From: an uncultured Gemmatimonadales bacterium
Lineage (GTDB): Bacteria > Gemmatimonadota > Gemmatimonadetes > Longimicrobiales > RSA9
Direction of reading: 5' to 3'
DNA length: 64,000 bases
Assembly (NCBI GenBank): GCA_963798085.1
Contig: CAWCRS010000009.1
Location: forward strand, 233,889 to 297,888
Made by a program: the position numbers and the translations under genes. Shown here one piece after another: positions 20 through 63,964 of this stretch. The notes under the pieces were generated by a model. It was not told the origin of the DNA and did no database searches. It was given only the letters and a program-made list of their open reading frames with translations. How positions within the stretch are numbered: the stretch's first letter is position 1; every line of letters begins with the position of its first letter.

Positions 20-48
20 GCGTTGCCCCGGCAACCAGCCCCGGCAAC
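20..48. repeat. partial copy of GC-rich intergenic repeat family A
   Basis: The sequence gcgttgccccggcaaccagccccggcaac lies just downstream of the permease stop at 65. The same CCCGrGCAACCAGCCCCrGCAAC core recurs at 10981-11004, 15435-15461, 25261-25308 and 58425-58447. Confidence 0.6.
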
Positions 49-64
49 ACAGTTCTCCAAGACA

Positions 65-10739: not shown

Positions 10740-10904
10740 GGAGAATCCAGCCTCGTCTGATGGAAGAATGTCAGCGCAAGATAAAGCCGGCATCCGATCC
10801 GCACAGCAGGCGAGGGACACAACGCCTCCTGCGTTGCACCACTGCCAGCTGCTAGTGCCCGGTTATCAATCCGCGCAACGGAAAAGGGCCGGGACCCAAC
10901 TCGT

Positions 10905-11020
10905 CCCAGCCCCCGGCCCCAGCCCGCCGTTCAGTCCGATCCCGGCCCCAGCCCGAGCCCCAGCCCGCCGTTCATCCGTTCCCGAGCAACCAGCCCCAGC
11001 AACGTCTTCCAGCAGTTCAA
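10905..11020. repeat. GC-rich intergenic repeat family A copy (minus orientation)
   Basis: Two tandem CCCAGCCC..GCCGTTCA units (10905-10940 and 10941-10980) are followed by cccgagcaaccagccccagcaacg. The reverse complement aligns with 25110-25185 (GTTGCyGGGGCTGGTTGCyCGGGAACGrAT.AACGG...GCTGGGGCTCGGGCTGGGG). It abuts the moeZ stop codon. Confidence 0.7.
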
Positions 11021-12230: not shown

Positions 12231-12248
12231 TGCGGTTCCCCCTGTTGC

Positions 12249-12520
12249 CCCGCCGGCAATGCTGGGCACAATGGTAATGGTGTCGCCCTCGTGGATGCGC
12301 GCAGCCGCGCCACCCAGCGCGCGCGCGTCATCCTCGTTGATGTACGCGTTCACGAAATTGCGCAGACTGCCGCGCTCATCATAGAGGTGCGGCCGGAGCG
12401 ATGGATGCTGCGTCACCAATGCTCCAGCGCCTCGCCCACCGTGGCCGCCGCAACACTGACCTCCTGTCCGCCGCCCGCGTACTGTTTCAGCGCCGCCGGT
12501 ATCCGTATGGTCACGCTCAT
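12249..12520 (-). pseudogene. cysO: CysO/MoaD/ThiS-like ubiquitin-fold sulfur carrier ending in Gly-Gly, frame broken near 12415
   Basis: MSVTIRIPAALKQYAGGGQEVSVAAATVGEALEH (ATG 12520) plus VTQHPSLRPHLYDERGSLRNFVNAYINEDDARALGGAAARIHEGDTITIVPSIAGG gives about 91 aa. The apparent stop (cat tgg tga) becomes cat ttg gtg if one T is restored. The GG codons are at 12254..12249, and the frame then runs on without a stop into moeZ. Confidence 0.8.
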
Positions 12521-15410: not shown

Positions 15411-15485
15411 GCCAGCCCGACTCCCAGGGTCGTTCCCAGCAACCAGCCCGAGCCCCAGCCCAAGCGACGCCGTTGCAGTCCGCCT
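15411..15485. repeat. GC-rich intergenic repeat family A copy
   Basis: The sequence gccagcccgactcccagggtcgttcccagcaaccagcccgagccccagcccaagcgacgccgttgcag contains the CAACCAGCCC / GAGCCCCAGCCC / GCCGTTGCA modules shared with 10905-11020 and 25088-25308. Confidence 0.6.
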
Positions 15486-18605: not shown

Positions 18606-21180
18606 TCAGTGCATCGTGGTTTCCTGCGAGGGCAGCCGGGTCTCGGGGAACACGAGTGATCCCTTCTCCAGACTCGCGCCGCGCAGGGCCAGCGCCAGCA
18701 CCTCGCCCAGATCGCGCACCGTGTGGAACTTCATCTGCGCGTGCACCTCGCGCGGCAGATCATCGAGATACGCCTCGTTGTCCTTGGGCAGAATGATTTC
18801 GCGGATCCCGGCACGGTAGGCGCCGAGCACTTTCTCCTTCAGCCCGCCGATGGGCAGCACGCGACCGGTGAGCGTGATTTCGCCGGTCATGGAAACGTCG
18901 CTGCGCACGGGTCGCGCCGACAACGCGGACACGATCGCCGTCGCCATTGTCACGCCCGCCGACGGACCATCCTTGGGAATGGCGCCGGCCGGCACGTGAA
19001 TGTGCAGCTCGACTGTCCTTCAGATTCTCCTCCGGAATGCCCAGCCGGTCGTAATGCGTCTTGGCGTACGTAAGCGCCGCACGCGCGGACTCCTTCATCA
19101 CGTCGCCCAGCTGTCCGGTGAGAATCAGTCCATCGCGGCCCTTGGCCACGCTGGCTTCGACGAACATGATGTCACCGCCCACGGGCGTGTAGAACATGCC
19201 TGTTGCGACGCCCACCATGTCTTCGCCCGCCGCCCGCTCCGGATGGACCCTCGCGCGGCCCAGCAGGTCATCCATGTCAGCTGGTCGATCGTCACGTGCT
19301 CCGACTTCGCCGGCCGCAATGCGACGCGCCGCCTTGCGCGCGACCTTGCCCAGCTCGCGCTCGAGTTGGCGCACGCCGGCTTCGCGCGTGTACTCACTGA
19401 TCACGGTCTCCAGGCGCCGTGTCCGTGACATCGATCTGCTCCTCACCCAGCCCGTTCTCATCGCGCTGGCGAGGAATCAGGTAACGGCGTGCGATCTCCT
19501 TCTTCTCCAGCTCGGTGTAGCCGGTGAACTCGACCGTCTCCATGCGGTCGAGCAGCGGCGCCGGGATCTGATCCCGGTAGTTCGCCGTGGCAATGAACAG
19601 CACCTCGGACAGATCGAACGGCAGACCGAGGTAATGGTCGACGAACGAGTGGTTCTGCGCCGGATCGAGCACCTCGAGCAGTGCCGCCGAGGGATCGCCC
19701 TGCAGACTGACACCGAGCTTGTCGACCTCGTCGAGCAGGAACACGGGATTCTTGGTGGCTGCCTGGCGCAGGCCCTGGATGATGCGGCCCGGCATGGCAC
19801 CCACGTAGGTACGCCGGTGTCCGCGGATGTCGGCTTCATCGCGCGCGCCGCCCAGGGCGATGCGCACGTACTTGCGCGAGAGCGCGCGCGCAATCGACTT
19901 GGCGATGGATGTCTTGCCCACACCCGGCGGTCCCACGAAGAGCAGGATCGGTCCGCGACCCACCGCCTTCGCCTTCGCGCGCACCTCGCTCTTGTGCGAC
20001 CTCCTTCACGCCCTCGCCCTTGCCGAACTCGTCCAGCGGACCAATCTCCTCGGCGCCGCCGTTCTTCGAACTTCGGCGGCGCGACACCTGCGTCTCTTCC
20101 TCCACTTCGACCTTCAGCTTCTCCTCTTCCGCAGCCTCCCTCGCCGCCCGCTCCATCTGGCAGCTTGCGCACGGCCAGGAACTCGAGAATGCGATCCTTC
20201 ACATCTTCGAGACCGTAATGGTCCTCCTCGAGGATGCGCTCGGCTTCGGGCAGATCGATCTTGTCTTCCGTGCGCTCGTTCCAGGGCAGCTCGGCGACCA
20301 GCTCGAGATACGTACGCACCACCTGGTATTCCGCGGACTGCGGGTTCGTGCGCCGCAGTCTGCCCAACTCGCGCTCGATCTCGGTCCTGGCTTCGGGCGG
20401 AAGCTCGAGGGAGTGCAGGCGCTCCTCCAGCTCCTCGATCTCGGAGCCTTCGTCCTCTTCACCCAGCTCTTTCTGAATCGCCTTCATCTGTTCGCGCAGC
20501 ACCATCTCGCGCTGCTTCTCGCCCAGCTCTTCCTGCACCTTCTGCTGGATCTCCTGCTGCGCCTCGAGGCGCACGAGATCGCGCTCCACGCCGACGAGCA
20601 CGCGGCGCATGCGCTCGGGCACGGGAAACAGCTCGAGCAGCTGCTGCTTCTCGCCCGCGGGCATGTCCAGATAGAAGGCGACGAGGTCCGCGAACGCGCC
20701 CGGCTCCTCGACACCCTGTACGATCTGCGCCAGCGCCTCGCGGGGCATGCCGCGACGCCGGCCCAGCTCGACCGCGCGCTCACGCAGCTCGCGATCGAGT
20801 GCGATCACCGCAGGCTCGTACGGCTTCGACGGCTCCTGCGGATCGATGACCCAGATGTCGGCCTCGAGCATGGAATCACCCTTGCGCGTGTACGTAAGGG
20901 CCTTCGCACGCTTTTCGCCGTGAATCAGTACCTGGAGTCCGCCCGTCGAGCGCTGCACCTGCACCACGCGCACGATCACACCCATTTCGTACAGCACTTC
21001 GGGAACGGCCTCGTCTACGTTCTCCCGCTGGCAGGCCGCGAACAGCAGGCGGTCGCCATCGAGCACTTTTTCGATTGCTTCCAGCGTGCCCGGCCGGCCG
21101 GCACTGATAGGAAGCGCCACGCCGGGGAACACGACGGTCTCCCGCATGGGGAGCACGGGCATTTTCAGTCGCTCAGCCAT
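18606..21180 (-). pseudogene. lon: ATP-dependent Lon protease, frame broken at about 20157, 19995, 19415 and 19013, plus a compensated pair at 19276-19308
   Basis: Five consecutive minus-strand ORF pieces. (1) LON N-domain MPVLPMRETVVFPGVALPI... (2) A charged insert. (3) AAA+ core [16 protein letters not shown]...FLLDEVDKL. (4) [19 protein letters not shown]...LTGQLGDVMKESA. (5) Protease domain [23 protein letters not shown]...[20 protein letters not shown]. All motifs are intact, and only the frame changes. Confidence 0.9.
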
Positions 21181-25074: not shown

Positions 25075-25087
25075 CCGTGACCCGACT

Positions 25088-25308
25088 GCGTTGCTGGTTG
25101 CTCGTTGCCGGGGCTGGTTGCCCGGGAACGAATTGAACGGATCCGGAGGCGTTGCTGGGGCTGGGGCTCGGGCTGGGGCTGGGGATTGCATCGTGCGCTT
25201 CGAACACGTGGTTAGGTTACCGTCCGGGCCCCAGAAGCGCGGGTTGATCTGATGAATCCCTTCCCGGGCAACCAGCCCCAGCAACCAGCAACCAGCAACC
25301 AGCAACGC
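25088..25308. repeat. inverted-repeat-bounded GC-rich element (family A) filling the hutU-hutF spacer
   Basis: The left arm gcgttgctggttgctcgttgccggggctggttgcccgggaa (25088-25128) matches the reverse complement of the right arm ttcccgggcaaccagccccagcaaccagcaaccagcaaccagcaacgc (25261-25308). Internally there is a (GCTGGG)n run at 25153-25185, and a (GCAACCA)n run lies in the right arm. Confidence 0.8.
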
Positions 25309-25340
25309 TGTCCGACAACGCTGAAAAGGCGAGACCCCGA

Positions 25341-47839: not shown

Positions 47840-50258
47840 ATGAACGCGCTGCTGAAGGACCTGCGCTACGGTGCGCGCATGATCCGCAAGACGCCGGGCG
47901 CATCGCTCATCGCGGTCATTGCGCTGGCGCTGGGCATCGGCCTGACCACGCTGATGTTCAGCATCGTGTACGGCGCGCTCATCCGGGGCCTGCCCTTCGA
48001 GCACAGTGAACGCCTGGTCAACATCAACCGCGTGCGCAAGGATCGCGGCAACGTGGGCATTTTCGCGCCCGACTTCGCCGACTGGAGCGCACAGCAGCGC
48101 TCCTTCGAGGAGCTGGGCGCCTACGCCGGCACATCCATCACGCTGTCGAGCGGCGACGCGCCGCGGCGCGTGAGAGGCGCGTACGTGTCAGCCAGCCTGT
48201 TCCGCGTGCTGCGCGTGCATCCACTGATGGGTCGCGTGTTCACGGATGAAGACGACCGGTCCGGCTCACCTGACATGCTGATCATCGGCTACGACGTGTG
48301 GCAGAGTGATTTCGCCGGCGATCCCGGCATCATCGGCAGGTCCGTGCGCATGAACGGCATCGATGCCGTGATCGTCGGCGTCATGCCGCGCGGTTTCGGC
48401 TTCCCCGACACGCAGAGCGCGTGGGTGCCATTGCGCCTGGATCCGGCGCGGACGGAGCGGGGCAGGGGCATGTCGGTGGGCGTCGTGGGCCGGCTGCGGG
48501 CCGCGGTGAGCATGGCGCAGGCGACGGCGGACATGGAGGCCATCGCGCAGCGCCAGGCGAGCGCGTATCCGGTCACGAACCAGGACATCACCGTCAGACT
48601 GCAGACCTCGCAGCAGGCGAGACTGGGCCGGGACGAGCGCACCGTGCTCTACACGATGCTGGGCGCCGTGCTGTTCGTGCTGCTCATTGCCTGCGCCAAT
48701 GTGGCGAATCTGCTGATCGGCAGGGCCATGGTGCGCACGCGCGAGATCGGCGTGCGCACCGCGCTGGGCGCATTCGAAACTGCGTGTGATGAGCCAGTTC
48801 CTCACGGAATCGCTGGCGCTGGCCATCGCCGGTGCCGCCATCGGTGTGGTGATCGCGGCGGTCGGCATCCGCGCGTTCAATGGCGCGATTGCAGGCGTCA
48901 ATCCACCGTTCTGGCTGAAGATCGCGCTGGACACGCCGTCACTGCTCTGTGCCAGCGCCGCCACGGTGCTGGCCACGCTGGCGGCGGGCTCCATTCCCGC
49001 CGTGCAGGCGGCCACCGCGAACACGCACGACATCCTGAAGGATGAGTCGCGCGGCAGCTCGAGCTTCAGACTGGGCAACCTGAGCCGCGTCCTGGTGATG
49101 GCGGAAATGGCGCTGTCGGTCGGGCTGCTCGTAGGTGCCGGCCTCATGATCAAGAGCGTGGTCAAACTGGAAACAATCGATCTCGGCTTCGACGCAAGGC
49201 ACACGCTGAATGCACGCATGATCATGTCCGACACCATCTACAACGACCGCGAGCGCCGCCTGCGCCTGGCCACGGACCTGCTGACACGCGTGTCAGCAAT
49301 GCCGGGTGTCACCGCGGCCACGCTCACCACGTCCGCGCCGGGCATGGGTGGCGGCAGCAACCTCTTCGCACTGGAGGGCGTCACCTACGCCACCGATCGC
49401 GACTACCCGTCGGCGCCCGGCGCCACTATCGCGCCCGGGTTCTTCGCCACGCTGGGCTTCAGGGTCATCGGTGGCCGCGAATTCACGGCGGACGATCGCG
49501 ACGGCACGCTGCCCGTTGTGGTCGTCAATCAGTCGTTCGAGCGACGCTGGTTCCCGGGGCAGAGCGCGCTGGGCAAGCGCCTGCGCTTCGGCACCAACAT
49601 CGCCGGCAACCCGAACCCGTGGATGACGATCGTGGGCGTGGTCCCCGATCTCTATGTCACTGCCGTGGACGAACAGGTGCACGAAGGTCTGTACCGGCCG
49701 ATTGCGCAGGCGGGCCCGCGCGGCCTCACGGTGCTGGCACTGACGCGCGCGAAGCCGGCATCGCTCGTGAATGCGCTGCGCGGCGTCGTCGCCGATGTGG
49801 ATCCCAACCTGGCGCTGGATCAGCTGGGTTCGCTCGAGGAAGTCATCCAGCAGGAGAACTGGTACTACGCCGTGTTCGGTGCGCTGTTCGTCGCGTTCGG
49901 CGGCGCTGCTCTCTTCCTTGCCTCGATCGGGCTGTACGGCGTCATGTCGTTCGCCGTGAGCCGGCGGCGGCGCGAGATGGGTGTGCGCATGGCCGTGGGT
50001 GCGGACGCGCGCGACGTGGTGCGCCTGGTCCTGCGACAGGGCATGACACAAACCGCCATCGGCCTCATTGTGGGAACCGCTTTTGCGCTTTTCGTGTCGA
50101 AACTGCTGGCGGCCATCCTCTTCCAGGTGCAGCCCCGCGATCCGGTGATCTTCGCGTCCATCATTGCAGTACTGCTGCTCACCGCCGTGCTGGCGTGCTG
50201 GATCCCGGCCCTGCGCGCGGCCCGCGTGGACCCCCTGGAAGCTCTGCGCTACGAGTAG
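47840..50258 (+). pseudogene. ADOP-type duplicated FtsX/MacB-like ABC permease, frame broken near 48773
   Basis: ORF 47840..49045 (MNALLKDLRYGARMIRKTPGASLIAVIALALGIGLTT...ACANVANLLIGRAMVRTREIGVRTALGA) continues as SKLRVMSQFLTESLALAIAG... in ORF 48786..50258, ending LEALRYE. One extra base lies in gca t tcg. Confidence 0.85.
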
Positions 50259-50404: not shown

Positions 50405-51124
50405 ATGCTGAGCATCCGCGAGGTGTCACGCATCCTGGACGTGTCCGAGCGCACGGTGCAGCGCTGGATCCGCTCCGGTGATCTGCCCGCCAGCCGGCAG
50501 CGCGAACAGGCACTGATCAATCCCGTCGACCTGCTGGAGTGGGCTTCCGCGCGGGGCGTCGAGCTGTCGCCCGAGCTGAGCCAGCAGTGGGCCGTGCCCG
50601 AGCTGCCCTCGCTCTACGACGCCCTTGCGGCAGGCGGCATTCACACGGACGTACCGGGGCACAGCAAGGACACGGTGCTGCGCGCCGTGGCCCGGCGCCT
50701 GCCGCTGCGCAACGAGGACGAGAAGGAGTTCGTGCTGCAGGGCATGCTGGCCCGCGAAGCGCTCGGTTCCACTGCGATCGGCGGCGGTGTCGCCATTCCC
50801 CACGTGCGCAACCCCATCATCCTGCACGTCACCCGACCCGCCGTGATGCTATCGTTCCTGGAGAACGAGATCGATTTCGGCGCCCTGGATGGGCAGCCGG
50901 TCACGGTCCTGTTCACAGTCGTCAGTCCCACCGTGCGCCTGCACCTGCACCTGCTGTCGCGCCTCGGTTTCGTGCTGCACGATGCCGATGTGCGGCGGTT
51001 GCTGGGTGAGCGTGCCTCACCCGCCGCCGTGCTGGAACGCGTGCGCTGTGTGGAGGCGGCACTGCCCGGCCGGGATGGACTGGACGGCCACGTCTCCACC
51101 AACGGGCCGGCACAGGCGAGCTAA
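50405..51124 (+). CDS. HTH (excisionase/MerR-like) plus PTS EIIA(Ntr/fructose-type) domain protein
   Basis: ATG at 50405. MLSIREVSRILDVSERTVQRWIRSGDLPA (helix-turn-helix). EIIA_2 domain with STAIGGGVAIPHVR (phospho-His region) and VTVLFTVVSP. The stop TAA overlaps the next ATG as TAATG. Confidence 0.8.
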   Translation: MLSIREVSRILDVSERTVQRWIRSGDLPASRQREQALINPVDLLEWASARGVELSPELSQQWAVPELPSLYDALAAGGIHTDVPGHSKDTVLRAVARRLPLRNEDEKEFVLQGMLAREALGSTAIGGGVAIPHVRNPIILHVTRPAVMLSFLENEIDFGALDGQPVTVLFTVVSPTVRLHLHLLSRLGFVLHDADVRRLLGERASPAAVLERVRCVEAALPGRDGLDGHVSTNGPAQAS

Positions 51125-53094
51125 TGCTGCTGGCGGGCGCGTTCCTGGCACTCCTGCTGGGCGCGGTCCTCTCGCTGGTCTTCGGCCGTGATGCGCTGAC
51201 CCGCGCCCGACTGGGCGTGGCCGGCGCCGTCACTGCATCGCTGCTGGGTCTGGCCGCCTGCCTGCCCCCGCTCATCTCTGCCGGCGCCGTGGTCTACCAC
51301 GTTGCGTGGTCCGTGCCCCGTGGCTCCTTCACGCTGGTGCTCGATCCCCTGGCGGCGTTCTTCCTGCTGATCACGTTCCTGCTGACACCCCTGACCGCGT
51401 GGTACGGCGGGCGCTACCTGCGCGAGCAGGCGCACGCACCGCGCGCCACGTGGTTCTTCTGGAACCTGCTGATCGCGGCGATTGCGCTGGTGCTGCTGGC
51501 GGGTAACGCAGTGTTATTCCTGGTCGCATGGGAAGTGATGACCATCGCCTCCTTCTTCCTGGTCACGACGGAGGATGAGCGGCTCGAGGTGCGACGCGCG
51601 GGCTGGATCTACCTGATCGCCGCGCACATTGGCACGGCCTTCCTGATGGTGTTCTTCCTGCTGGCCGGCGGCAGCGCGGGTTCGCTCGATTTCGCGGCGC
51701 TCGGCGGCCACGCGCTGGTGGCGCCGGGTCTGCTGTTCGCACTGGCGCTGGTGGGTTTCGGCGCCAAGGCCGGACTCGTGCCCCTGCACGTGTGGCTGCC
51801 CGAAGCGCACCCGGCGGCGCCCAGTCACGTGTCCGCCCTGATGTCGGGTGTGCTGATTGCGACCGGCATGTACGGTATTCTGCGCGCCCTCGTGCTGGCC
51901 GGCCCGCTGGCGCCCGCATGGGGACCGGCCCTGATCGTGATCGGCGCACTGAGCGGACTGGTGGGCGTGGTGTTCGCGCTCGCGCAGGATGACATGAAGC
52001 GCGCTCTCGCATACTCGAGTGTCGAGAACATGGGGATTGCGCTGCTCGGCATCGGCGCGGGCGTGACCGGACTGAGCCGCGGCTCGCCCGTGCTGGCCGA
52101 GATCGGCTTCGGCGCTGCCCTGCTGCACGTGCTGAATCATGCGTGCTTCAAGGGACTGCTGTTCCTGGGCGCGGGCGCAGTGCGCCAGGCAACGGGCCAG
52201 ACGGGAATCGACCGGCTGGGTGGCCTGCTGCGACGCATGCCGCGCACCGGCCTCGCCTTTCTCGTGGGGTGCGCTGCCATCACGGGCCTGCCGCCGCTCA
52301 ATGGCTTCAGCAGCGAATTCCTCACGTTCCTCGCGGGACTGCGCATCGTCCGCGACATGCCGCCGGGCACGCGCTGGGCCGGCATCATCCTGGTGTGCGC
52401 GCTGGCCGCGGTGAGCGGCCTGGCCGTGGCACTGTTCGCGAAGTTGTTCGGCAGCGCATTCCTGGGCACGCCGCGCAGCGCGGCTGCGGCGCAGGCGCGC
52501 GAGGCGCACGTCGATCTGCGCACGCCGCTGCTCATCCTGGCAGCCGCGTGTGTGCTGCTGGGTCTCTTCCCGATCGTGGGCGTGCGTGCCGCGGCCGGTG
52601 CGGTGGGGCGGCTGGCGGGGCGGCCGCTCGATACCCGGACAGCCACACTGCTGCTCAGTACGCGGCTGCTGGGTAACGCCGTGTTGGGACTGAGCGCTCT
52701 GCTCGCACTGTGCGCCGGCCTGCGCTGGTCGCTCGTGCGACGACGCGAACGTCAGATCTCCGTCACCTGGGGCTGCGGTTATGCCGGGACGGTGGAACGC
52801 GCGCAGTACAGCGCATCATCGCTGGTGGCACCACTGGTCGCGTTCCTGGGCGGGGTGCTGCCCAGTGAGACGACAAGGGTGGCGCCGCCCCACGGCCTGT
52901 TCCCGGACACGGCAACGCTGCATGCGGGCGCCGCCGACGTATTCACGCAGCGCATGTACGGTCCCTCCTTCCAGTGGCTGAGCCGCTCCTTCCGCAGGCT
53001 GCGCATCGTGCAGCACGGCCGCCTGCACTGGTACCTGCTGTACGTGTTCCTCACGCTGCTGCTCATGCTGCTGATCGAGTTCGGCCAATGGTGA
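51124..53094 (+). CDS. HyfB-like (NuoL/Mrp antiporter-like) membrane subunit
   Basis: 656 aa, polytopic. Contains the proton-pump family motifs WEVMTIASFFLV, GFGAKAGLVPLHVWLPEAHPAAPSHVSALMSGV, LAYSSVENMG and HACFKGLLFLGAG. Confidence 0.9.
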   Translation: MLLAGAFLALLLGAVLSLVFGRDALTRARLGVAGAVTASLLGLAACLPPLISAGAVVYHVAWSVPRGSFTLVLDPLAAFFLLITFLLTPLTAWYGGRYLREQAHAPRATWFFWNLLIAAIALVLLAGNAVLFLVAWEVMTIASFFLVTTEDERLEVRRAGWIYLIAAHIGTAFLMVFFLLAGGSAGSLDFAALGGHALVAPGLLFALALVGFGAKAGLVPLHVWLPEAHPAAPSHVSALMSGVLIATGMYGILRALVLAGPLAPAWGPALIVIGALSGLVGVVFALAQDDMKRALAYSSVENMGIALLGIGAGVTGLSRGSPVLAEIGFGAALLHVLNHACFKGLLFLGAGAVRQATGQTGIDRLGGLLRRMPRTGLAFLVGCAAITGLPPLNGFSSEFLTFLAGLRIVRDMPPGTRWAGIILVCALAAVSGLAVALFAKLFGSAFLGTPRSAAAAQAREAHVDLRTPLLILAAACVLLGLFPIVGVRAAAGAVGRLAGRPLDTRTATLLLSTRLLGNAVLGLSALLALCAGLRWSLVRRRERQISVTWGCGYAGTVERAQYSASSLVAPLVAFLGGVLPSETTRVAPPHGLFPDTATLHAGAADVFTQRMYGPSFQWLSRSFRRLRIVQHGRLHWYLLYVFLTLLLMLLIEFGQW

Positions 53095-53998
53095 TCCGCA
53101 GCCTGCTGCCGCCGCTGCTGGGCCTGGCCGGCGCGCCCCTGCTGCTTGGCACGATCAACAAGCTGAAGGCCGCGTTCGTGGGCCGCACGGGCGCACCCCT
53201 GACACAGCCGTATCACGACCTGGCCCGCCTGCTGCGCAAAAATCTGGTGTACAGCAGCACGACGACGTGGCTGTTCCGCGCGCTTCCCGCAGTCTCGCTT
53301 GCGGCCGGCGTGGCTGTCGTGCTGCTCCTGCCGGCACTGGGACAGCGCCCGCCGTTTTCCTTCCCTGCCGACTTCCTGGTTCTGGCCGGTGCCCTGGCGC
53401 TGAGTCGCGCGAGCACGGTGTTAGCGGCGCTGGACACGGGATCGAGTTTCGAGGGCATGGGCGCCAGCCGCGAGCTGTTCATCGCCGCCCTGGCCGAGCC
53501 GGCGTTCTTCCTGGTGCTGCTGGTGCTGGTGACCCGGAGCGGGGAGCTGTCATGGCGGGCATGCTGGGTCCGGCGCTGACCGCGCACGGGTCAGGCGAGG
53601 CTGCCGCTCTGCTGCTGGCGGGCGGGGCCTTGCTGCTGCTGCTGCTCGCCGAGAACTCGCGTGTGCCGGTCGATGATCCGACGACGCATCTCGAGCTGAC
53701 CATGATTCACGAAGTCATGGTACTGGACCATGCCGGGCCCGATCTGGCGTTCATCCTGTACGGCGCCATGCTCAAGTTGTGGCTGTTCGCGGCGCTGCTG
53801 GTCGATCTCGCGCTTCCGGTGGGCGGCCTGCCCGCGCTGCCTGGCGCGCTGCTCTTCCTGGCGGGCATGGCGCTCAGCGCGCTGCTGGTGGCGCTGGTGG
53901 AGTCGAGCATGGCACGACTGCGGCTGGCGCGCGTGCCCCAGCTCCTGATCGCGGCATCCGTGCTGGCCGCGTTCTCCCTCCTGCTATCGGCGAGTTAG
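53088..53998 (+). pseudogene. HyfC/HycD-like (NuoH-like) membrane subunit, frame broken near 53551
   Basis: MVIRSLLPPLLGLAGAPLLLGTINKLKAAFVGRTGAPLTQPYHDLARLLRK... (ORF 52974..53579) continues as MAGMLGPALT...LLAENSRVPVDDPTTHLELTMIHEVMVLDHAGPDLA... (ORF 53267..53998). The junction GELS / MAGML needs a 1-nt shift. The ATG at 53088 overlaps the hyfB-like stop. Confidence 0.85.
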
Positions 53999-53999
53999 C

Positions 54000-54644
54000 A
54001 TGCAGCCGCTGCTGGAGACCCTGCTCATCGGCATTGTGCTGGTGAACCTGTCCATCCTGGGGTCGAGCCGGCTGGCCGGCTGCATCCGGCTGGTGGCGGT
54101 GCAGGGGGTGCTGGCCGGGCTGCTGCCCGCACTGCTGGGCACCACCGCGAGCGGCGCACGCGCCTTTGTCATGGTCGTGGTGGCCATGGGCGTGAAGGGG
54201 TTTCTGATGCCGTGGCTGCTGACGCGCGCGATCCGCGAAGCCAACGTACGCCGCGAGGTGGAGCCGTTCGTCGGTTTCAGCGCGTCCGTCGTGCTGGGAG
54301 CGCTGCTCACCGCCGCCGGGTTCGCGCTGGCCGCGCAGCTGCCACACCAGGGACCGGTGCAGGCGCCGCTCCTGGTGCCGGTGGCGTTCGCCACGCTGCT
54401 GAATGGCGCGCTGCTGATGGTGACACGGCGCAAGGCGATCATGCAGGTGCTGGGTTACCTGGTGCTGGAGAACGGCATCTTCCTGTTCGGCCAGAGCCTG
54501 GCGACGGAACTGCCCACACCCGTCGAGCTGGGCATCCTGCTCGACCTGCTGGTGGGCGTGTTCGTGATGGGCATCGCCATCTTCCGCATCAACCGCGAGT
54601 TCGACAGCACGGCCGTGCACCACCTGGCGGAGCTGAAGGACTGA
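54000..54644 (+). CDS. HyfE-like small membrane subunit
   Basis: 214 aa with 7 hydrophobic helices. Contains KGFLMPWLL and MQVLGYLVLENGIFLFG, typical of hydrogenase-4 component E homologues. Starts 2 nt after the previous stop. Confidence 0.8.
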   Translation: MQPLLETLLIGIVLVNLSILGSSRLAGCIRLVAVQGVLAGLLPALLGTTASGARAFVMVVVAMGVKGFLMPWLLTRAIREANVRREVEPFVGFSASVVLGALLTAAGFALAAQLPHQGPVQAPLLVPVAFATLLNGALLMVTRRKAIMQVLGYLVLENGIFLFGQSLATELPTPVELGILLDLLVGVFVMGIAIFRINREFDSTAVHHLAELKD

Positions 54645-56080
54645 TGCTGCCGGCGCTCGTGCTGCTTCCCGCGCTGGCGGGCGTGCTCGCGTTCTTCGCG
54701 CGCTCGGCCCGGGTGCGCGCCAACACGCTGCTGGGCGGTGCCCTCACGCACGCCCTGCTGACCGCCGTAGTGGCGTGGCGGCGGCCAGGACCAATGCTGG
54801 GCGGCTGGCTGCAGCTGGACGCGATCGGCCTGCTGTTCCTGGCCATTGTGAGCGTGTTGTTCCTCGTGGTGGTGCTGTACCTGGGCGTGCGGCGCACGCC
54901 GGACGAGCAAAGGCCGGAGCGCACGTTCGCGGCCTGCCTGCTGTGGTTCGCCGCATCCATGTCCCTGGTGACCATCAGCCATCATCTCGGTCTGCTCTGG
55001 GCGGCAGTGGAGGCGACGACACTCGCCAGTGCTCCGCTCATTTATCACCATCACAGCCGCCGCTCGCTCGAGGCGGCGTGGAAGTATCTGCTGATCTGCT
55101 CCGTCGGTATCGCGCTGGCACTCATGGGCACGTTCCTGCTGGCTCTGTCGGCGGCGGGCGGCGCCGTGCCGCACGGCGATCCGCTGCTGCTCCAGCGTCT
55201 GGTCGCCGCGGGACCTCGCCTGGATGGACCCGTGCTGCGCGCCGCGTTCGTGTTCCTGCTGGTCGGCTACGGCACCAAGATGGGACTCGCGCCGCTGCAC
55301 ACGTGGCTGCCCGATGCGCACAGTGAAGCGCCATCGCCGGCATCGGCGCTGCTCTCGGGGGCACTCCTGAATTGCGCGTTCCTGGCACTGCTGCGCGGCT
55401 GGCAGGTCGTGGCCGCCGCCGGCATGCAGGCGTTTGCCGCGCGCTGGCTCGTGCTCTTCGGCCTGCTCTCCATGGCGCTGGCCGGCGCGCTCATCCTGGG
55501 ACAGCGCGACTACAAGCGCATGCTCGCCTACTCGAGCGTCGAGCACATCGGCATCCTGGCGCTGGGTCTGGGAGCGGGGGGTGGCGCCGCGTTCGGCGTG
55601 CTGCTGCACGCGCTGAATCACTCGCTGGCCAAGGGCCTGCTGTTCCTGACCGCGGGCAACATCCTGCTTGCCTATGACACGAAAAGCAGCCGCAATGTGC
55701 GCGGTGTGCTGTCCGCCCGTCCGCTGACCGGCGTGCTCTGGCTGGCGGGATTCCTCGCCATCGCGGGCATGCCGCCATTCGGCCTGTTCCTCAGCGAATT
55801 CAGCATCCTGCGCGCACTGCTGGACCAGCAGCGCTTCCTCGTGGCCACGCTGTTCCTGGCACTGCTCGCCGTGGTGTTCGCGGGGCTGTCCTCCATCATG
55901 CTGCGCATGGCACAGGGAAAGCCTTCCGAGGTCGTGCCGGTGCCCGGCCGGGAGCGCTGGAACACGCTGTTATCACCCGCGCTGCTGGCCGTCGCCGTCC
56001 TGCTGCTTGGCCTGTACCTGCCACCCCAGCTCGACCGGCTGCTGCACGACGCCGCCGCCATCCTGCAGGCAGCGCCATGA
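54644..56080 (+). CDS. HyfF/HyfD-like (NuoM/N antiporter-like) membrane subunit
   Basis: The ATG at 54644 overlaps the previous TGA (ATGA-type overlap). Contains LLWAAVEATTLASAPLI, GYGTKMGLAPLHTWLPDAHSEAPSPASALLSG, LAYSSVEHIG and HSLAKGLLFLTAGN. Confidence 0.9.
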   Translation: MLPALVLLPALAGVLAFFARSARVRANTLLGGALTHALLTAVVAWRRPGPMLGGWLQLDAIGLLFLAIVSVLFLVVVLYLGVRRTPDEQRPERTFAACLLWFAASMSLVTISHHLGLLWAAVEATTLASAPLIYHHHSRRSLEAAWKYLLICSVGIALALMGTFLLALSAAGGAVPHGDPLLLQRLVAAGPRLDGPVLRAAFVFLLVGYGTKMGLAPLHTWLPDAHSEAPSPASALLSGALLNCAFLALLRGWQVVAAAGMQAFAARWLVLFGLLSMALAGALILGQRDYKRMLAYSSVEHIGILALGLGAGGGAAFGVLLHALNHSLAKGLLFLTAGNILLAYDTKSSRNVRGVLSARPLTGVLWLAGFLAIAGMPPFGLFLSEFSILRALLDQQRFLVATLFLALLAVVFAGLSSIMLRMAQGKPSEVVPVPGRERWNTLLSPALLAVAVLLLGLYLPPQLDRLLHDAAAILQAAP

Positions 56081-57611
56081 GCACCCGCCGCACGCTCCGG
56101 CTGCACAACGGTCAGGCGTTCGATACCGCCCTGCTGCCCGAACTGTCGATCGCCGAATTCACCGGGTTCGTGACCAGCCGTTGTCGCGAAGGCGAAAGGC
56201 TGGTGACGCTCTTCGGCTGGCAGGAACCCGATCCCGCGAACGACCGGGCGCGCACCCGGCTCGCCGTGGTGCTGGCCAGCGATCAGAGCGGACAGCTGGA
56301 AGTGCTGTGCTGCACGGTTGCAGGGCATCAGTACACATCGCTCACGCCCGACGTGGCCGCAGCCGCACGCTTCGAGCGCGAGATCCGCGAGCAGCTGGGC
56401 ATCGTGCCAGTGGACCACCCCTGGCTCAAACCACTGCGCAGCCAGCCACCGCTATATCCCGGTCTCCGGCCCCTGCACAATGCGGCGGTCGAGATCGGCG
56501 TCGACTATCCCTTCTTCCGCATGGAAGGCGAGGCAATACACGAGGTCGCGGTAGGCCCGGTGCACGCGGGCATCATCGAGCCCGGACACTTCCGCTTCCA
56601 GTGCTACGGCGAGCGCGTGTTCCACCTCGAGATAATGCTGGGTTATCAGCACCGCGGCATCGAGCGCGCACTGCTGGGCGGTCCGCAGCGCAATTCCGCC
56701 GTGCAGATCGAGGAGCTGGCCGGCGACACCACCGTGGGCCACAGCATGGCGTGGGCCCAGGCGCTGGAAGCGCTGGCCGCGTGCGACGTGCCCCTGCGCG
56801 CCCAGGCGCTGCGCGCGCTCGCGCTCGAACTCGAGCGCCTGGCCAACCACACCGGTGACATCGGCGCACTCGCCGGCAATGTCGCGTTCCTGCCCACGGC
56901 GGCCTACTGCGGGCGCATTCGCGGCAGTTTCCTCAACATGACGGCGCTGCTGTGCGGGAACCGTTTCGGTCGCGGCTTCATCCGGCCCGGCGGCGTCGCC
57001 TTCGATATCGATGGCGGAGATGTGCTGCAGCTGCAGGCTGCGCTCAATGCGGCGAGCCACGATCTGCACATTGCCGTCGAGCTGTTCTTCGAGACCGGAT
57101 CGGTCGTCGACCGGCTCGAAGGCACCGGACCGGTGACGCCCGAGCTGTGTCAGGAGCTGGGTGTCGTGGGTCCGGCCGCCCGCGCCTGCGGCATCGCCCG
57201 CGACGTGCGCCACGACCACGCCCACGGCATGTACCGCCTGGCGCACATTCCCACCGCCACCGTGGAAGGCGGTGACGTGTACGCGCGTGCCATGGTGCGC
57301 TGGCTGGAGATGCAGCGCTCGCTGGCATTCATTCGCGAGCTGCTCGCGGGCTTGCCACCCGGACCGTCCAGCGTGCCCATGCCGGGTCTGCTGCCCAATC
57401 TGGGCACCATTTCCCTTGTCGAAGCCTGGCGCGGTGAGATCGCGCACATCGCCATGACCAATGCACACGGCCGCTTTCTGCGCTACAAGATCACCGACCC
57501 CTCGTTTCACAACTGGCCGGCACTCGAAATCGCAATGCGCGGCCAGCAGATTCGGACTTTCCGCTCTGCAACAAGAGCTTCAATCTTTCCTATTCGGGGG
57601 CGGATCTTTGA
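56077..57611 (+). pseudogene. HyfG/HycE-like fused NuoC-NuoD large subunit lacking all four NiFe cysteine ligands, frame broken near 57552
   Basis: NuoD-type core VGPVHAGIIEPGHFRF...LGYQHRGIE. Where hydrogenases have R-x-C-G-x-C-x3-H, this protein has E-L-A-G-D-T-T-V-G-H. After GQQI the frame must shift by 1 nt to read SDFPLCNKSFNLSYSGADL-stop (TGA 57609-57611), which aligns with D.P....S.DPCxSCxDR with Cys replaced by Ser and Gly. The ATG overlaps the previous stop (ATGA). Confidence 0.85.
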
Positions 57612-57619
57612 ATGCGGAA

Positions 57620-57727
57620 TGCGTTGGAGTTGCTGAGGCTGGGGCTGGGGCTCGGGCTGGGGACGAATTGAAATGCGTTGCCTGGGGGCTGGTTGCTGGG
57701 GCTGGTTGCTCGGGAACGGCAGCAACG
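57620..57727. repeat. family A GC-rich repeat block (left boundary of the intra-operon spacer)
   Basis: The sequence gcgttggagttgctgaggctggggctggggctcgggctggggacgaattgaaatgcgttgcctgggggctggttgctggggctggttgctcgggaacggcagcaacgg shares its modules and the GAATTGAA linker with 25110-25185. Confidence 0.75.
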
Positions 57728-58337
57728 GATACAGCGTGCAGCTGCCCTGGTAGGGCTGGCACGGGGGACGGACTGCATGCGTTTGCGGCGGCTGGTTGCT
57801 CCACGGCATCAACGGAAACCGCCCGCACGGAGTTGTTCGGGATGCTGTCTGGGAATGGCGCGGCAGGCTGCCGCCGTCTACGCCATCGACGTTCGCACGA
57901 AGCGGCGACCAGAGCCATGCTGCCCATGGAAAGCACTGGATTGAGGCTCGACAGCAGCGGGTGGTCTTGCGACAGGCGCCGGGCCGCGGGGTGGGACCGG
58001 GGCGGAAATCGAGACGCGTCGCGGGCGAAGGGTGGGACAACATTGGCTTGCACTGCAGGGCCGTTGCCCGGGAGCACCCGGGAACATCGTGGAGGTGGCG
58101 GACGCGACCTGCGCACGCCTGCACCGAATTCTGTGTTAGTACGATGATCGAGGTTCAGGCCGTGGATCGGTGGCCCGCGCACGCCGGGCAGACCCTGAAC
58201 GCGTCGAGGGGGAACCGTTTGAGAAAGGTCGAACCGCGGCGCCGGTTTTCTTCCGTCGGGGCGCGACAGCGCGTGCGCGACACCCGCCTCACGGCAGCCG
58301 TGCGCAATCGTGCAGAGGGCGCGGGAGCCGCGCTGTT

Positions 58338-58462
58338 TCCCAGCCCCGGTCCCGAGGTCAGCCCCGGCCCCGGCGCCAGTGCCAGCCCCAGCCCGGGGCA
58401 GGCCGTCCAGTCCGTCTTGCCATACCCGGGCAACCAGCCCCGGCAACGAGTTCCAGCAACGA
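58338..58462. repeat. family A GC-rich repeat block, inverted (right boundary of the intra-operon spacer)
   Basis: ...cccagccccggtcccgaggtcagccccggccccggcgccagtgccagccccagcccgggg...cccgggcaaccagccccggcaacgagttccagcaacgac. Its reverse complement, gttgctggaactcgttgccggggctggttgcccggg, is nearly identical to 25091-25126. Confidence 0.75.
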
Positions 58463-58472
58463 CGCCGGCTCC

Positions 58473-59240
58473 ATGTTAGAGATTCTGCGGGCTCGTCTCG
58501 ACCAGGGGCATCGCACGATCCGGTTTCCGCCCGAGGATGCCGGGCTGCCGGAGCGCTACCGGGGCAGGCCGGTGATCGGCGAGGGGCCGTGCCCGGACGG
58601 CTGCGACGAGTGCCGTGAGGCCTGTCCGACCGAAGCGATCGTGATCGAAGGCGGAGGCGTTCAGCTCGACCTGGGTCGCTGCGTCTTCTGCGGCGCATGC
58701 GAGGCCGCATGTCCGGCAGGGGTCATCACGTTTGGCCAGGACTATCGCATGGCAACACGCACGCGCCAGGATCTCGTCGTGCGCGCAGACGCCGAATACC
58801 CGCTCGCAATGGAACTCGACAAGCATATGCGTCGCCTCTTCGGACGCTCACTCAAGCTGCGACAGGTCTCGGCGGGCGGCTCCGGGGCCGAAGAAGCAGA
58901 CTGCAACGTGCTGAACACCGTCGTATTCGACCTCGCTCGCTTCGGCATCCAGTTCGTCGCCTCGCCTCGCCACGCTGACGGACTGCTGGTCACCGGACCC
59001 GTCTCGCGCAATATGCGCCGCGCGCTCGAGCTGACCTGGGAAGCGCTGCCTTCACCCCGCCTGGTCATCGCGGTGGGCGCCTCCGCGATCAGTGGCGGTC
59101 CCTGGCGCGGCCAGCCCGCTGTCCTCGACGGCGTCAGCGCCATTCTGCCTGTCGATCTCTACATTCCGGGTTTTCCGCCACATCCTCTTACGATCCTCAA
59201 TGGGCTTCTTCGGCTTCTCTCTCACCGCGGAGTGCGCTGA
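58473..59240 (+). CDS. fusion of a 2x[4Fe-4S] ferredoxin-like domain with a NuoB/HycG-like small subunit that lacks all four cluster cysteines
   Basis: ATG at 58473 inside ORF 58170..59240. The N-terminal part has CPDGCDECREACP and CVFCGACEAACP. The C-terminal part has FGIQFVASPRHADGLLVTGPVSRNM, AVGASAISGG and PVDLYIPGFPPHP. Aligned by eye to HycG (GSCNGCE, GACGNSGG, IPGCPP), the four Cys positions read S, A, S and F. Confidence 0.85.
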   Translation: MLEILRARLDQGHRTIRFPPEDAGLPERYRGRPVIGEGPCPDGCDECREACPTEAIVIEGGGVQLDLGRCVFCGACEAACPAGVITFGQDYRMATRTRQDLVVRADAEYPLAMELDKHMRRLFGRSLKLRQVSAGGSGAEEADCNVLNTVVFDLARFGIQFVASPRHADGLLVTGPVSRNMRRALELTWEALPSPRLVIAVGASAISGGPWRGQPAVLDGVSAILPVDLYIPGFPPHPLTILNGLLRLLSHRGVR

Positions 59241-59796
59241 GGGCGCAGAGAGCGGCTCCGGAGAGATCAGGCCGGGGGCGGGAACAGATTCTGTTGATCT
59301 GGTTTCACCCGGAGGCCGGTGAGGACGCGGAGGATGCAGGGCCACTCTGGTGTTTGTGTCTGGTTCTTTCAGCATGTCACCAGAGGTCAATGTCTTTTCT
59401 TTCGCATTTGGCAGAGGCCGATCTCATGCTTGGACGTTGGTGTGCTCGGTCACGGGCGCGCGAAGTCAACGGCGTCCACGCGCGAGCCTGCGCAACGCGG
59501 ATGCGCTGACGCTCGAGCTATCGCTGGGGAGTGCGGCGCGTTGCGGTGCGGGCCGGGCCGCGCGGATGAAGGTGTGATCGTGTTAAGGCACTGTTAAATG
59601 GTCGCGCACGGAGCCGCCAATGGTGGCAGCGCGCTCGACCCTCTCGCCTCACGTGGGCGTCTGCGCGTGACGGGAGGCTTGACGCTCAGACTTCAGGCAG
59701 GGACATTTCTGCTGCACCGCGTCAGACAGGGCAGGCTGCTGCGCTGCAGCACTGCCGCACGGTCACCGTCAATCGAGCTGAGAGAGTCGCCAGGGC

Positions 59797-60615
59797 ATGC
59801 CGCTCTTCATGGACCGTCACGATATTCGCAATGCAACGGCCGAGGCTGTTGCCGCGGCGCACCAGCGGGATCTCATCGTCCAGGCGAGCCATGCGTGCAA
59901 AGCTCTCACCTACTGGTTCGATGAGGACCGCGGGACGGCTTTCTGCCTCATTGAAGGACCTACCGAAGCAGCCGTTCGTGCCATGCACCGCGAAGCGCAC
60001 GGCCTCATTCCCAACGTCGTCGTGGAAGTCGATCCCGCGGCTGTTGCCGGCTTCCTGGGACGCGTCACTGATCCCAATGACGCAGTGGCGAACCCGATCC
60101 GCGAGGCAGGGTTCCGGGCACTGATGTTCACCGACATGGTGAACTCCACACTGATCACGAACACACTCGGCGACGACAGGGCACAATCGGTTCTGGCGAA
60201 GCACAATGAGATTGTGCGGAGGACGCTGCTGAGCCACGGCGGGCGCGAAATCGACCGGGCCGGTGACGGCTTCCTGATATCCTTTTCGTCCGCCGCGCAA
60301 GCCGTGGCGTGTGCCGTGTCAATGCAGCGTGCGTTCCAGGACTACAATGCCGATGCCGCCCGTCCCGCCGACATCCAGGTGCGCATTGCGCTGGGGGCGG
60401 GCGAACCGATCGCCGACGGAGAATCGCTGTTTGGTTCCGTGGTCAACCTGACCGCGCGCATCTGCGCTCACGCTGGCGCGGGCGAGATCCTGGCTACACG
60501 CGTCGTCCGCGATCTCTGCACCGGCAAGCCGTTCACCTTCCTGCCAGCCGGCGCTCTGGAACTCAAGGGTTTCGCCGATCCGATCGAAGTGCACCGCGTC
60601 GACTGGACCGCCTGA
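59797..60615 (+). CDS. DUF4242-like N-terminal domain fused to a class III adenylate/guanylate cyclase catalytic domain
   Basis: N-terminal MPLFMDRHDI...AHQRDL..Q...CKALTYWFDEDRGTAFCLIEGPTEAAVRAMHREAHGL (SCO4226-like). Cyclase domain RALMFTDMVNST...REIDRAGDGFLISFSSAAQAVACAVSMQ...IRIALGAGEP...GSVVNLTARI...LKGF.DPIEVHRV. Confidence 0.8.
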   Translation: MPLFMDRHDIRNATAEAVAAAHQRDLIVQASHACKALTYWFDEDRGTAFCLIEGPTEAAVRAMHREAHGLIPNVVVEVDPAAVAGFLGRVTDPNDAVANPIREAGFRALMFTDMVNSTLITNTLGDDRAQSVLAKHNEIVRRTLLSHGGREIDRAGDGFLISFSSAAQAVACAVSMQRAFQDYNADAARPADIQVRIALGAGEPIADGESLFGSVVNLTARICAHAGAGEILATRVVRDLCTGKPFTFLPAGALELKGFADPIEVHRVDWTA

Positions 60616-62958: not shown

Positions 62959-63964
62959 TCAGCGGGTGCCGTACCCGAACGATTCGATGAGCCGCCTGGC
63001 CACGTCGCCGCGCAGGAAGTCCAGGTACGCGCGCGCCGCGGGATGGTCGCGGCCGGGCAGGAGCAGGACCGCGTCCTGCGCAAGGGGCTCATGGTACTCG
63101 GCGGGCACCAGCCAGTACGTGTGCTCCGGCTCGTGGATTACCTGCGACCACGCGACGAAGCCCAGCTCCGCCGCGCCCGACTTCACGAACTGCAGCGTCT
63201 GCGTGAGGCTCTCGCCGCGCACGAGGCGGGCGGCAATCGCATCGTACAGACCCAGAATGCCGCAGCACCTGCATGGCCGCCACACCGTAGGGCGCCGTCT
63301 CCGGGTTGGCGATGGCAATGTGGCGAAACCGCCCGCTGCGCAGATCCTCGCCGGCCGCGCGGACGGAATCGAGCGACGGGCCGTACAGCGCGAGTCGCCC
63401 GACCGCGTACGTGAAACGCGAGCCCGCCACCGCGTAGCCATCACGCTCCAGCAGCGCGGGCCGCTCGCTGTCCGCCGACAGGAACACGTCGAAGGGGGCA
63501 CCGTTGCGCGCCTGCGCGTAGAGCAGCCCGCTCGAGCCCACGCTGCTCACCACACGCTGGCCCGATCCCGCCCTGAACTTCGCCGCCAGCTGCTCCTGCA
63601 CCACTGCGAAATTCGCGGCCACCGCCACTCTCACCTCTGCGGCCACCGCCACCCTCACCTCTGCGGCCACCGCCACCCTCACCTCTGACGACTCGCGCGC
63701 TCCCGCGTATGCGTGAGCGCGCGTACCCGGACCGTCGCGCCGTCCGGCGCCCGATGTGCCGAGCCCGAGCAGCAGCAGGAACACGCTGTGCCGCGCAGCA
63801 GCGCGCCCGCAGCGGAAGGTCGCGCGGACAGAGGTGGACACGGCTGCAGCGACACGGGCCGGCGCGCAGGCGGAGAGCCCAGCCGCGCGCGCCCGGGCGC
63901 GGCCTGACAGGCTGCCAGGCGGCCGGCGGCGGCGCCACGCGCGGATTCCTGCTGCCGCCATCAC
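62959..63964 (-). pseudogene. modA: molybdate-binding periplasmic protein, frame broken near 63262, with an in-frame 3 x 24-bp tandem repeat near the signal peptide
   Basis: VAVAANFAVVQEQLAAKFRAGSGQRVVSSVGSSGLLYAQARNGAPFDVFLSAD...IANPETAPYGVAAMQVL (ORF 63089..63964) continues as LGLYDAIAARLVRGESLTQTLQFVKSGAAELGFVAWSQV... (ORF 62959..63501). The true start is uncertain. Confidence 0.8.
63615..63686. repeat. perfect-frame tandem triplication of a 24-bp unit inside modA
   Basis: GCGGCCACCGCCAC(T/C)CTCACCTCT occurs three times (63615-63638, 63639-63662, 63663-63686). On the coding strand it encodes (EVRVAVAA)x3. Confidence 0.85.

Follow-up and report, generated by a model that had tools for sequence, protein, structure and literature searches.

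To see what a repeat can do inside an operon, it is useful to begin with E. coli, where the REP/BIME of the malE-malF interval makes the message upstream of it more stable and causes genes of the one operon to be expressed at different levels. The locus described here lies in a 64-kb stretch of DNA, analysed at its full length, that we call the window, and it likewise has a repeat hairpin right after an upstream stop codon inside an operon. The malE-malF elements, however, are palindromic, stay below 100 nt and have a measured effect, whereas the effect we propose here is deduced from sequence. Another obvious comparison is with the REPINs and REP doublets of REP-RAYT systems, which are abundant, short intergenic repeats found singly or as inverted hairpin pairs (PMC3116915, PMC3337134). 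As in those systems, our repeat is abundant and, by its count in the window, strictly intergenic, it comes both as single units and as inverted pairs able to form a hairpin, and the element that it builds is lineage-specific and probably non-autonomous. The differences are also plain: REPs are imperfect palindromes, whereas single units here are strand-asymmetric, microsatellite-like arrays; the arms measure about 95 nt as against about 25 nt in REPINs; and the spacing between facing units is 598 nt here, far beyond the tens of nucleotides of REPINs, and 66 nt in a sister element between hutU and hutF.

In Neisseria, the inverted repeats of Correia elements (CREE) pair in the mRNA, RNase III binds or cuts them, and the expression of neighbouring genes is altered (PMC2649163, PMC2229807, PMC10969869), a behaviour that may serve, by analogy, as a model for the effect we envisage at this locus. 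Our element resembles bacterial MITEs and Correia elements in being non-coding, in having terminal inverted repeats and in sitting between genes that are presumably co-transcribed. Unlike them, it has no target-site duplication, its core is not repeated, it shares no sequence similarity with them, and at 786-861 nt it is well above their usual 100-400 nt. Because several of the features that define REPINs and MITEs fail here, we file it broadly among dispersed intergenic repeat elements and non-autonomous insertions, and under no named family. Our view is that the spacer is probably a non-coding, lineage-specific insertion, in which inverted family units of about 95 nt surround a 598-nt orphan core, with an extra short unit at the left. 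We take it most likely to be selfish or neutral, an insertion of repeat elements that is of a fairly ordinary kind and lies in an unusual place and lineage.

A gap in a tightly packed operon

On the plus strand of the window, whose GC content is 68%, positions 51124-59240 encode a Hyf/Ehr-type membrane complex related to complex I (Pfam). Its genes, again by Pfam, specify a NuoL-like subunit, a NuoH-like subunit, a small membrane subunit, a NuoN-like subunit, a NuoC+NuoD-like large subunit and a ferredoxin+NuoB-like small subunit. A gene for a regulator with HTH and PTS-EIIA domains lies 5' of the cluster and is also kept in the closest relative (locus L001, compared by tblastn with its ORFs). 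The two genes that concern us most are these:

56077..57611, + strand: large-subunit gene, a NuoC+NuoD-like fusion (Pfam Complex1_49kDa, Complex1_30kDa), whose C-terminus fits the orthologs only after a change of frame
58473..59240, + strand: small-subunit gene, a 2x[4Fe-4S] ferredoxin domain plus a NuoB-like domain (Pfam Oxidored_q6, Fer4)

Between them lies a spacer of 861 nt (57612-58472), which runs from the large-subunit stop at 57611 to the small-subunit ATG at 58473. The initial annotation of this DNA had drawn attention to the gap and given it as 862 bp, so that the gap itself stands and its length is corrected by one nucleotide. It had also described all other junctions of the cluster as overlapping or at most 2 nt apart, and we could verify this at each of them (a 2-nt gap, a GTGA overlap, a 1-nt gap, a TGATG overlap and an ATGA overlap).

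The left boundary of the spacer needs some care. As assembled, the ORF that begins at 56077 continues to a stop at 57636, and the conserved C-terminus that ends at 57611 lies in a different frame, one base having been lost from an ATT(T)CG run near 57550. The C-terminus reads RGQQI followed by SDFPLCNKSFNLSYSGADL and the stop, with the frame switch between the two, and all orthologs read GQQISDFPLCNKSFNLSYAGHDL and then stop, exactly 19 residues past the end of the alignment. An end of the large subunit at 57611, as first annotated, therefore requires a correction of 1 nt and is right only on that understanding.

Similar errors are found elsewhere in the window. The Lon protease gene (18606-21180, minus strand) is broken up into four ORFs that differ in frame; LON_substr_bdg falls in one, AAA in another, Lon_lid in a third together with the N-terminal half of Lon_C, whose C-terminal half makes up the fourth, and at least three frameshifts are implied. 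Alignment to a paralog or to orthologs revealed further 1-nt frameshifts at short A/T runs, near 48770 in an ADOP-type permease (47840-50255), near 53560 in the NuoH-like gene and, as described, near 57550 in the large subunit. Since the essential Lon is broken three times, these point to an assembly rich in indels rather than to decay of this operon, and the errors are probably of the long-read type. We had considered a decaying operon, with two frameshifts and an insertion, and dropped it in view of the like frameshifts in Lon and the ADOP permease, both outside the operon.

Several observations on the flanking genes deserve a place here. The large subunit ends (57552-57611) in DFPLCNKSFNLSYSGADL, the same in all orthologs, and, judged on this C-terminus alone, it is without the C-terminal CxxC [NiFe]-binding motif, which we take to be typical of true hydrogenases, so that its absence would suggest an Ehr-type, non-hydrogenase complex. 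The small subunit aligns with its orthologs from residue 1 and is 100% identical to a database protein (P0001), and its nearest homolog other than the source is 75% identical. In the 11 nt that separate the repeat from its ATG, we looked for an obvious Shine-Dalgarno sequence and could see none. Its second codon is TTA, a rare leucine codon in GC-rich genomes, which probably reflects the usual AT-rich codon bias near start codons, and which also supplies the TAG that closes the long plus-strand frame of the spacer (ATGTTAG, 58473-58479). The roughly 550 nt 3' of the small subunit (59241-59796) lack coding signal in all frames and contain neither a family repeat nor an Rfam match, with an AT-richer patch near 59340-59400; the next gene (59797-60615) joins an SCO4226-like domain to an adenylate/guanylate cyclase domain.

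Is there a gene in the spacer?

With a codon model trained on 16 long ORFs of the window, the six frames of the spacer give log-odds of -0.26 to -0.73, as against 0.58 +/- 0.11 for genes in 200-codon windows. A sliding test with 50-codon windows matters here because assembly indels could hide a gene across frames, and over 57600-58245 the best of the six frames is never above -0.09; where the C-rich repeat array reads as Pro/Ala/Ser, the best-frame score reaches only 0.10-0.16. The two long open frames, of 239 and 286 codons, are near chance for the base composition (P = 0.05 and 0.13). The earlier view that no ORF here is protein-like is thus borne out. Nor did databases offer a homolog: the plus-strand frame 57754-58476 had 0 matches among 1.84 billion representative proteins, the two open minus-strand frames of the spacer gave no protein homolog, and Pfam, NCBIfam and PHROGs had no match to the spacer, permissive thresholds included. 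One signal does count against our main reading, which is that GC by codon phase in the core is 0.75, 0.68 and 0.62, a weak period-3 pattern (permutation P = 0.015) with which an ancient coding frame, by now decayed past recognition, would be compatible.

A family of strand-asymmetric repeats

The ends of the spacer belong to a repeat family with two recognisable modules. Module X (TTCCCGRGCAACCAGCCCCRGCAAC...CCAGCAAC) occurs 6 times in the window where 0.02 occurrences are expected, and module Y (CCCAGCCCGAGCCCCAGCCC) occurs 8 times where 0.07 are expected. The family occupies six sites in the 64 kb, all of them intergenic: 25-55, 10897-11014, 15430-15483, 25084-25312 and both ends of the spacer. 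Multiple alignment resolves them into one unit, which in its G-rich orientation reads GCGTTGCTGG..GTTGCYGGGGCTGGTTGCYCGGGAACGG, a linker and (GGGCTG)n; it is about 95 nt long, and its conserved anchor (GCGTTGCTGG...GGGGCTGGTTGCYCGGGAACGG) leads into arrays of hexamers and heptamers (GCTGGG, GCTGGTT). Copies are about 75-90% alike, and their longest exact match is 28 nt. The members of the family, and the parts of the spacer, are as follows:

25..55, + strand: single X module, at the window's left edge (X matches, alignments)
10897..11014, + strand: solo family unit (Y'-Y-linker-X), about 10 nt past the stop of the minus-strand gene 11024-12349
15430..15483, + strand: short-form family unit in a divergent intergenic region (Y match, alignments)
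25084..25312, + strand: sister element between hutU and hutF, its arms (72 nt, 81% complementary) separated by a loop of 66 nt; G4 array at 25157-25178
57619..57665, + strand: short-form repeat unit, G-rich on the sense strand, with a Y match of 0 mismatches at 57642-57661
57676..57771, + strand: left arm, a full unit (rcX, linker, degenerate rcY), G-rich on the sense strand, with an X match at 57692-57711 on the minus strand
57772..58369, no strand: core, unique, 598 nt, non-coding, with no homolog and no excess RNA structure
58370..58461, + strand: right arm, a full unit (Y, linker, X), C-rich on the sense strand, with an X match at 58428-58447; partner of 57676-57771

In the short-form unit, TRF finds a GCTGGG array at 57632-57662 and a canonical G-quadruplex motif, GGGGCTGGGGCTCGGGCTGGGG, lies at 57641-57662; at the right edge of the core there is a degenerate CAGCCC array (58339-58369). 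The two full units form a nested inverted repeat (57676-57771 against 58370-58461), whose gapped alignment scores 55 where shuffled sequences give 18.8 +/- 2.6 with a maximum of 30. A crossed-arm reading, which had come from ungapped pairs, was ruled out by the gapped alignment, in which a degenerate Y module (57753-57771) makes the left unit whole. We can therefore affirm the initial annotation in seeing repeat blocks of opposite orientation at the two ends, now resolved as nested full units plus an extra short-form unit, and in likening the whole to the hutU-hutF element, which is built alike. Its unique core of about 610 bp is indeed unique, although the gapped alignment makes it 598 nt.

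One strand of the X and Y modules is rich in G and T and the other in C and A, and neither module is palindromic singly. Consistent with this, we searched the solo unit at 10897-11014 for an inverted repeat within it that would take in the X or Y modules and found none. Since the unit is strand-asymmetric, a hairpin arises only when two units face each other, and they do so in two places, this spacer and the 229-nt hutU-hutF element. That single modules are not palindromes counts against our main reading, as do the 75-90% likeness of the copies and the size of the element (786-861 nt), which exceeds that of typical REPINs or MITEs. The same is true of the missing target-site duplication: a search that had been suggested at the outset found no direct repeat at the flanks of the spacer (TGAAATG on the left, ACGCCGG on the right), and none at those of the hut element (GTGACCC and CGACAAC).

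Copies of the core and of its arms were also sought, as had been proposed. By blastn against the window, plasmids and phages the core has no second copy, and in the window the arms match the other copies of the family. A scan of metagenomes for module X returned a single contig with a unit (L081, JGI, 5.5 kb), which has only the repeat unit in common with the window and does not contain the core. A viral scan for the repeat gave two chance matches, both within coding DNA. As for the idea of a non-autonomous insertion, what we find is a non-coding, repeat-bounded insertion, and its mobility is no more than putative, there being no target-site duplication, no second copy of the core in the collections searched and no transposase that could be linked to it. 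With the core single-copy in everything searched, mobility of the whole unit stays a candidate property.

Some features of the family are reported here in their own right. The G-rich strand of the Y array is a canonical G-quadruplex motif in a motif scan, and, of the seven such motifs that the window contains, four fall within Y modules (25157-25178 and 57641-57662 on the plus strand, 10905-10925 and 10946-10966 on the minus strand); the candidate G-quadruplex sequence of the repeat is GGGGCUGGGGCUCGGGCUGGGG. Units that lie no more than about 15 nt past a stop codon (25-55, 10897-11014, 25084-25185 and 57619-57771) are G-rich on the sense strand of that gene in 4 of 4 cases, a number too small to test. 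Near the right edge of the window, at 63601-63687, there is a tandem repeat of period 24 (GCGGCCACCGCCACCCTCACCTCT) with about 3 copies and a 97% match.

Is there a structured RNA?

The initial annotation had offered a large structured RNA as the other reading of the spacer, and this finds no support here. Rfam 15 has no match over the window at gathering thresholds and none at E <= 5 over 57450-58650, a range that includes the core, and the scan for tRNA or tmRNA found none. The spacer as a whole folds somewhat better than its shuffles (z = -2.5 on the plus strand and -2.0 on the minus strand), and this excess is due to the arms, whose pairing is kept in both the MFE and the centroid fold. 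Folded alone, the 610-nt core is less stable than shuffled sequences (z = +1.4 and +1.2), so that the sole structural signal of the spacer is the pairing of arm with arm. The gain on cofolding the arms is -51 kcal/mol, as against -35.6 +/- 6.2 for shuffled arms, and this is only about 2.5 sd past what a G-rich strand facing a C-rich strand gives by composition, which counts against our main reading. A scan of the spacer for promoters and terminators found no promoter-like or terminator-like sites.

The same junction in other genomes

With the large subunit as query, we gathered 80 related loci, at most 62% identical to it and mostly from Gemmatimonadota, Eisenbacteria, Elusimicrobiota and Hydrogenedentota, and 79 of these hold both genes. 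The nearest orthologs come from Longimicrobiales (Gemmatimonadota) MAGs, at 62-75% identity. Across the 79 loci, the junction of large and small subunit measures from -4 to +320 nt and is no longer than 40 nt in 65; in the closest relatives, L001 and L004, it is 13 nt. Comparison of orthologous clusters had been recommended as a test, and its outcome is clear, in that the spacer is absent from 79 of 79, none has a conserved gene in this position, and modules X and Y are absent from all 80 loci. Because the junction is short in the orthologs and holds no conserved gene, the spacer is a derived feature.

Four of these loci have something else at the junction:

L003, 2811-2981: 36-nt inverted (GGGACAG)n arrays around a 79-nt core
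L031 (a Gemmatimonadales MAG), 7509-7833: 21-bp perfect terminal inverted repeats and a 93-aa GIY-YIG ORF (Pfam E = 4.5e-12)
L058, 7580-7653: a REP-like hairpin
L007, 6091-6157: a hairpin

In four lineages besides that of the window, the junction has thus gained hairpins or mobile elements independently, none of them related to the spacer, and is a recurrent landing site; such recurrent, unrelated insertions are the strongest argument that the spacer of the window is of the same general kind. The mini-element of L031 is the most direct comparison, since it lies at the same junction and also has inverted-repeat ends. It differs in having 21-bp perfect repeats and an intact 93-aa ORF, whereas the window element has imperfect arms of about 95 nt and no detectable ORF, and the two share no similarity.

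Could it be something else?

Other explanations have to be weighed against an insertion, and one of them is compatible with it. The core might be a decayed gene that was once flanked by the repeats, either the family's own transposase or some other cargo, and RAYT genes are indeed typically flanked by their own REPs. The period-3 pattern in GC would fit such a relic, as would the plus-strand frame 57754-58476 and its codon-aligned antisense, both of which are open as expected around a GC3-rich frame, and the GIY-YIG gene of L031 rides between inverted repeats at this same junction. However, no domain library has a match even at permissive E-values, there is no protein homolog, ORF lengths are near chance and every 50-codon window looks non-coding, so we consider a decayed gene unlikely, if still worth bearing in mind. 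A decayed RAYT or transposase in particular was a candidate that we set aside, no Pfam match supporting it. A living orphan protein, read from TTG 57796 or ATG 58144 to 58479, would have the attraction of restoring coupling, since its stop would overlap the start of the small subunit (ATGTTAG). It could draw on an open frame of 239-241 codons, on the TAG 4 nt after the small-subunit ATG and on a GC content that is highest at the third codon position of the frame. Against this, its codon log-odds of -0.26 are far from those of genes, it has neither a domain nor a single match in the 1.84 billion proteins, its length is ordinary for the composition, and its translation is rich in Arg, Gly, Pro and Ala and has for a C-terminus the repeat array read as protein, all of which makes an orphan protein highly improbable in our eyes.

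At the level of RNA and DNA, there are further candidates. A functional RNA (a leader, a processing module or an independent ncRNA, with a stem that regulates or uncouples the small subunit) or an internal promoter would be in keeping with arm pairing that brings the stop and start codons side by side, with a sense-strand G-quadruplex motif 30 nt past the stop, with a small-subunit ATG that no Shine-Dalgarno sequence precedes, and with the G-rich sense strand of stop-adjacent units in 4 of 4 cases. We nonetheless think it quite unlikely, because the core folds no better than shuffles and has no Rfam match, the spacer has no promoter-like or terminator-like sites, there are no homologs in which to look for covariation, and the closest relatives do without the spacer. 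That foreign sequence was joined at the repeats by the assembler is a fair concern, given repeats at both spacer ends and an assembly error-prone enough to have put 1-nt frameshifts into Lon (at least 3), the ADOP permease, the NuoH-like gene and the large subunit. These errors, however, are single-base indels at short A/T runs, of the sort usual in a consensus of long reads, which would reach across 861 nt; no exact match between copies exceeds 28 nt, too little to mislead most assemblers; and two compensating wrong joins back into the same operon would be needed. An artefact is, for these reasons, very unlikely. The arms might, in principle, be recombination sites that flip the core as an invertible DNA switch, and inverted repeats about 600 nt apart directly upstream of a gene are suggestive of one; no recombinase gene is found among the neighbours examined, though, the core has no promoter-like site, and the repeats are a dispersed family rather than a unique pair, so that we give a switch almost no credence.

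How might the insertion act?

An insertion of repeat elements, which is the reading we prefer, could have arisen through a REPIN- or MITE-like spread of the family, or through repeat-mediated capture of DNA between two units. The resulting element would be selfish or neutral, would be co-transcribed with the operon and would abolish, at this one junction, the stop/start translational coupling that is present at all the others. The G-rich arm begins 9 nt past the stop codon and the C-rich arm stops 11 nt short of the ATG, and the two are predicted to pair in the mRNA. Such pairing would loop out the core, put the stop and start codons about 20 nt apart and make a long double-stranded stem, which may act as a 3'-end stabiliser or as an RNase III-type processing site, like REP and Correia elements. 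A bolder idea, which we advance as an outside chance, is that the family represents an undescribed class of dispersed bacterial repeats, non-palindromic, made up of hexamer and heptamer arrays, G4-bearing and set directly after stop codons with the G-rich strand first, and that arm pairing in its long form, the 786-nt element, frees or insulates a cargo RNA of 598 nt and so resets expression of the small subunit.

What does it mean?

For annotation, the practical points are that no gene should be called in the interval, that the large subunit has to be read through a probable sequencing frameshift, and that the assembly is best handled as one rich in indel errors. If our reading is true, this would be one more case of a dispersed repeat colonising a permissive junction in a conserved operon, the lineage in this instance being uncultured and poorly sampled. 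The repeated and independent invasion of this one junction in five lineages is a small but clear comparative finding as to where operons tolerate insertions.
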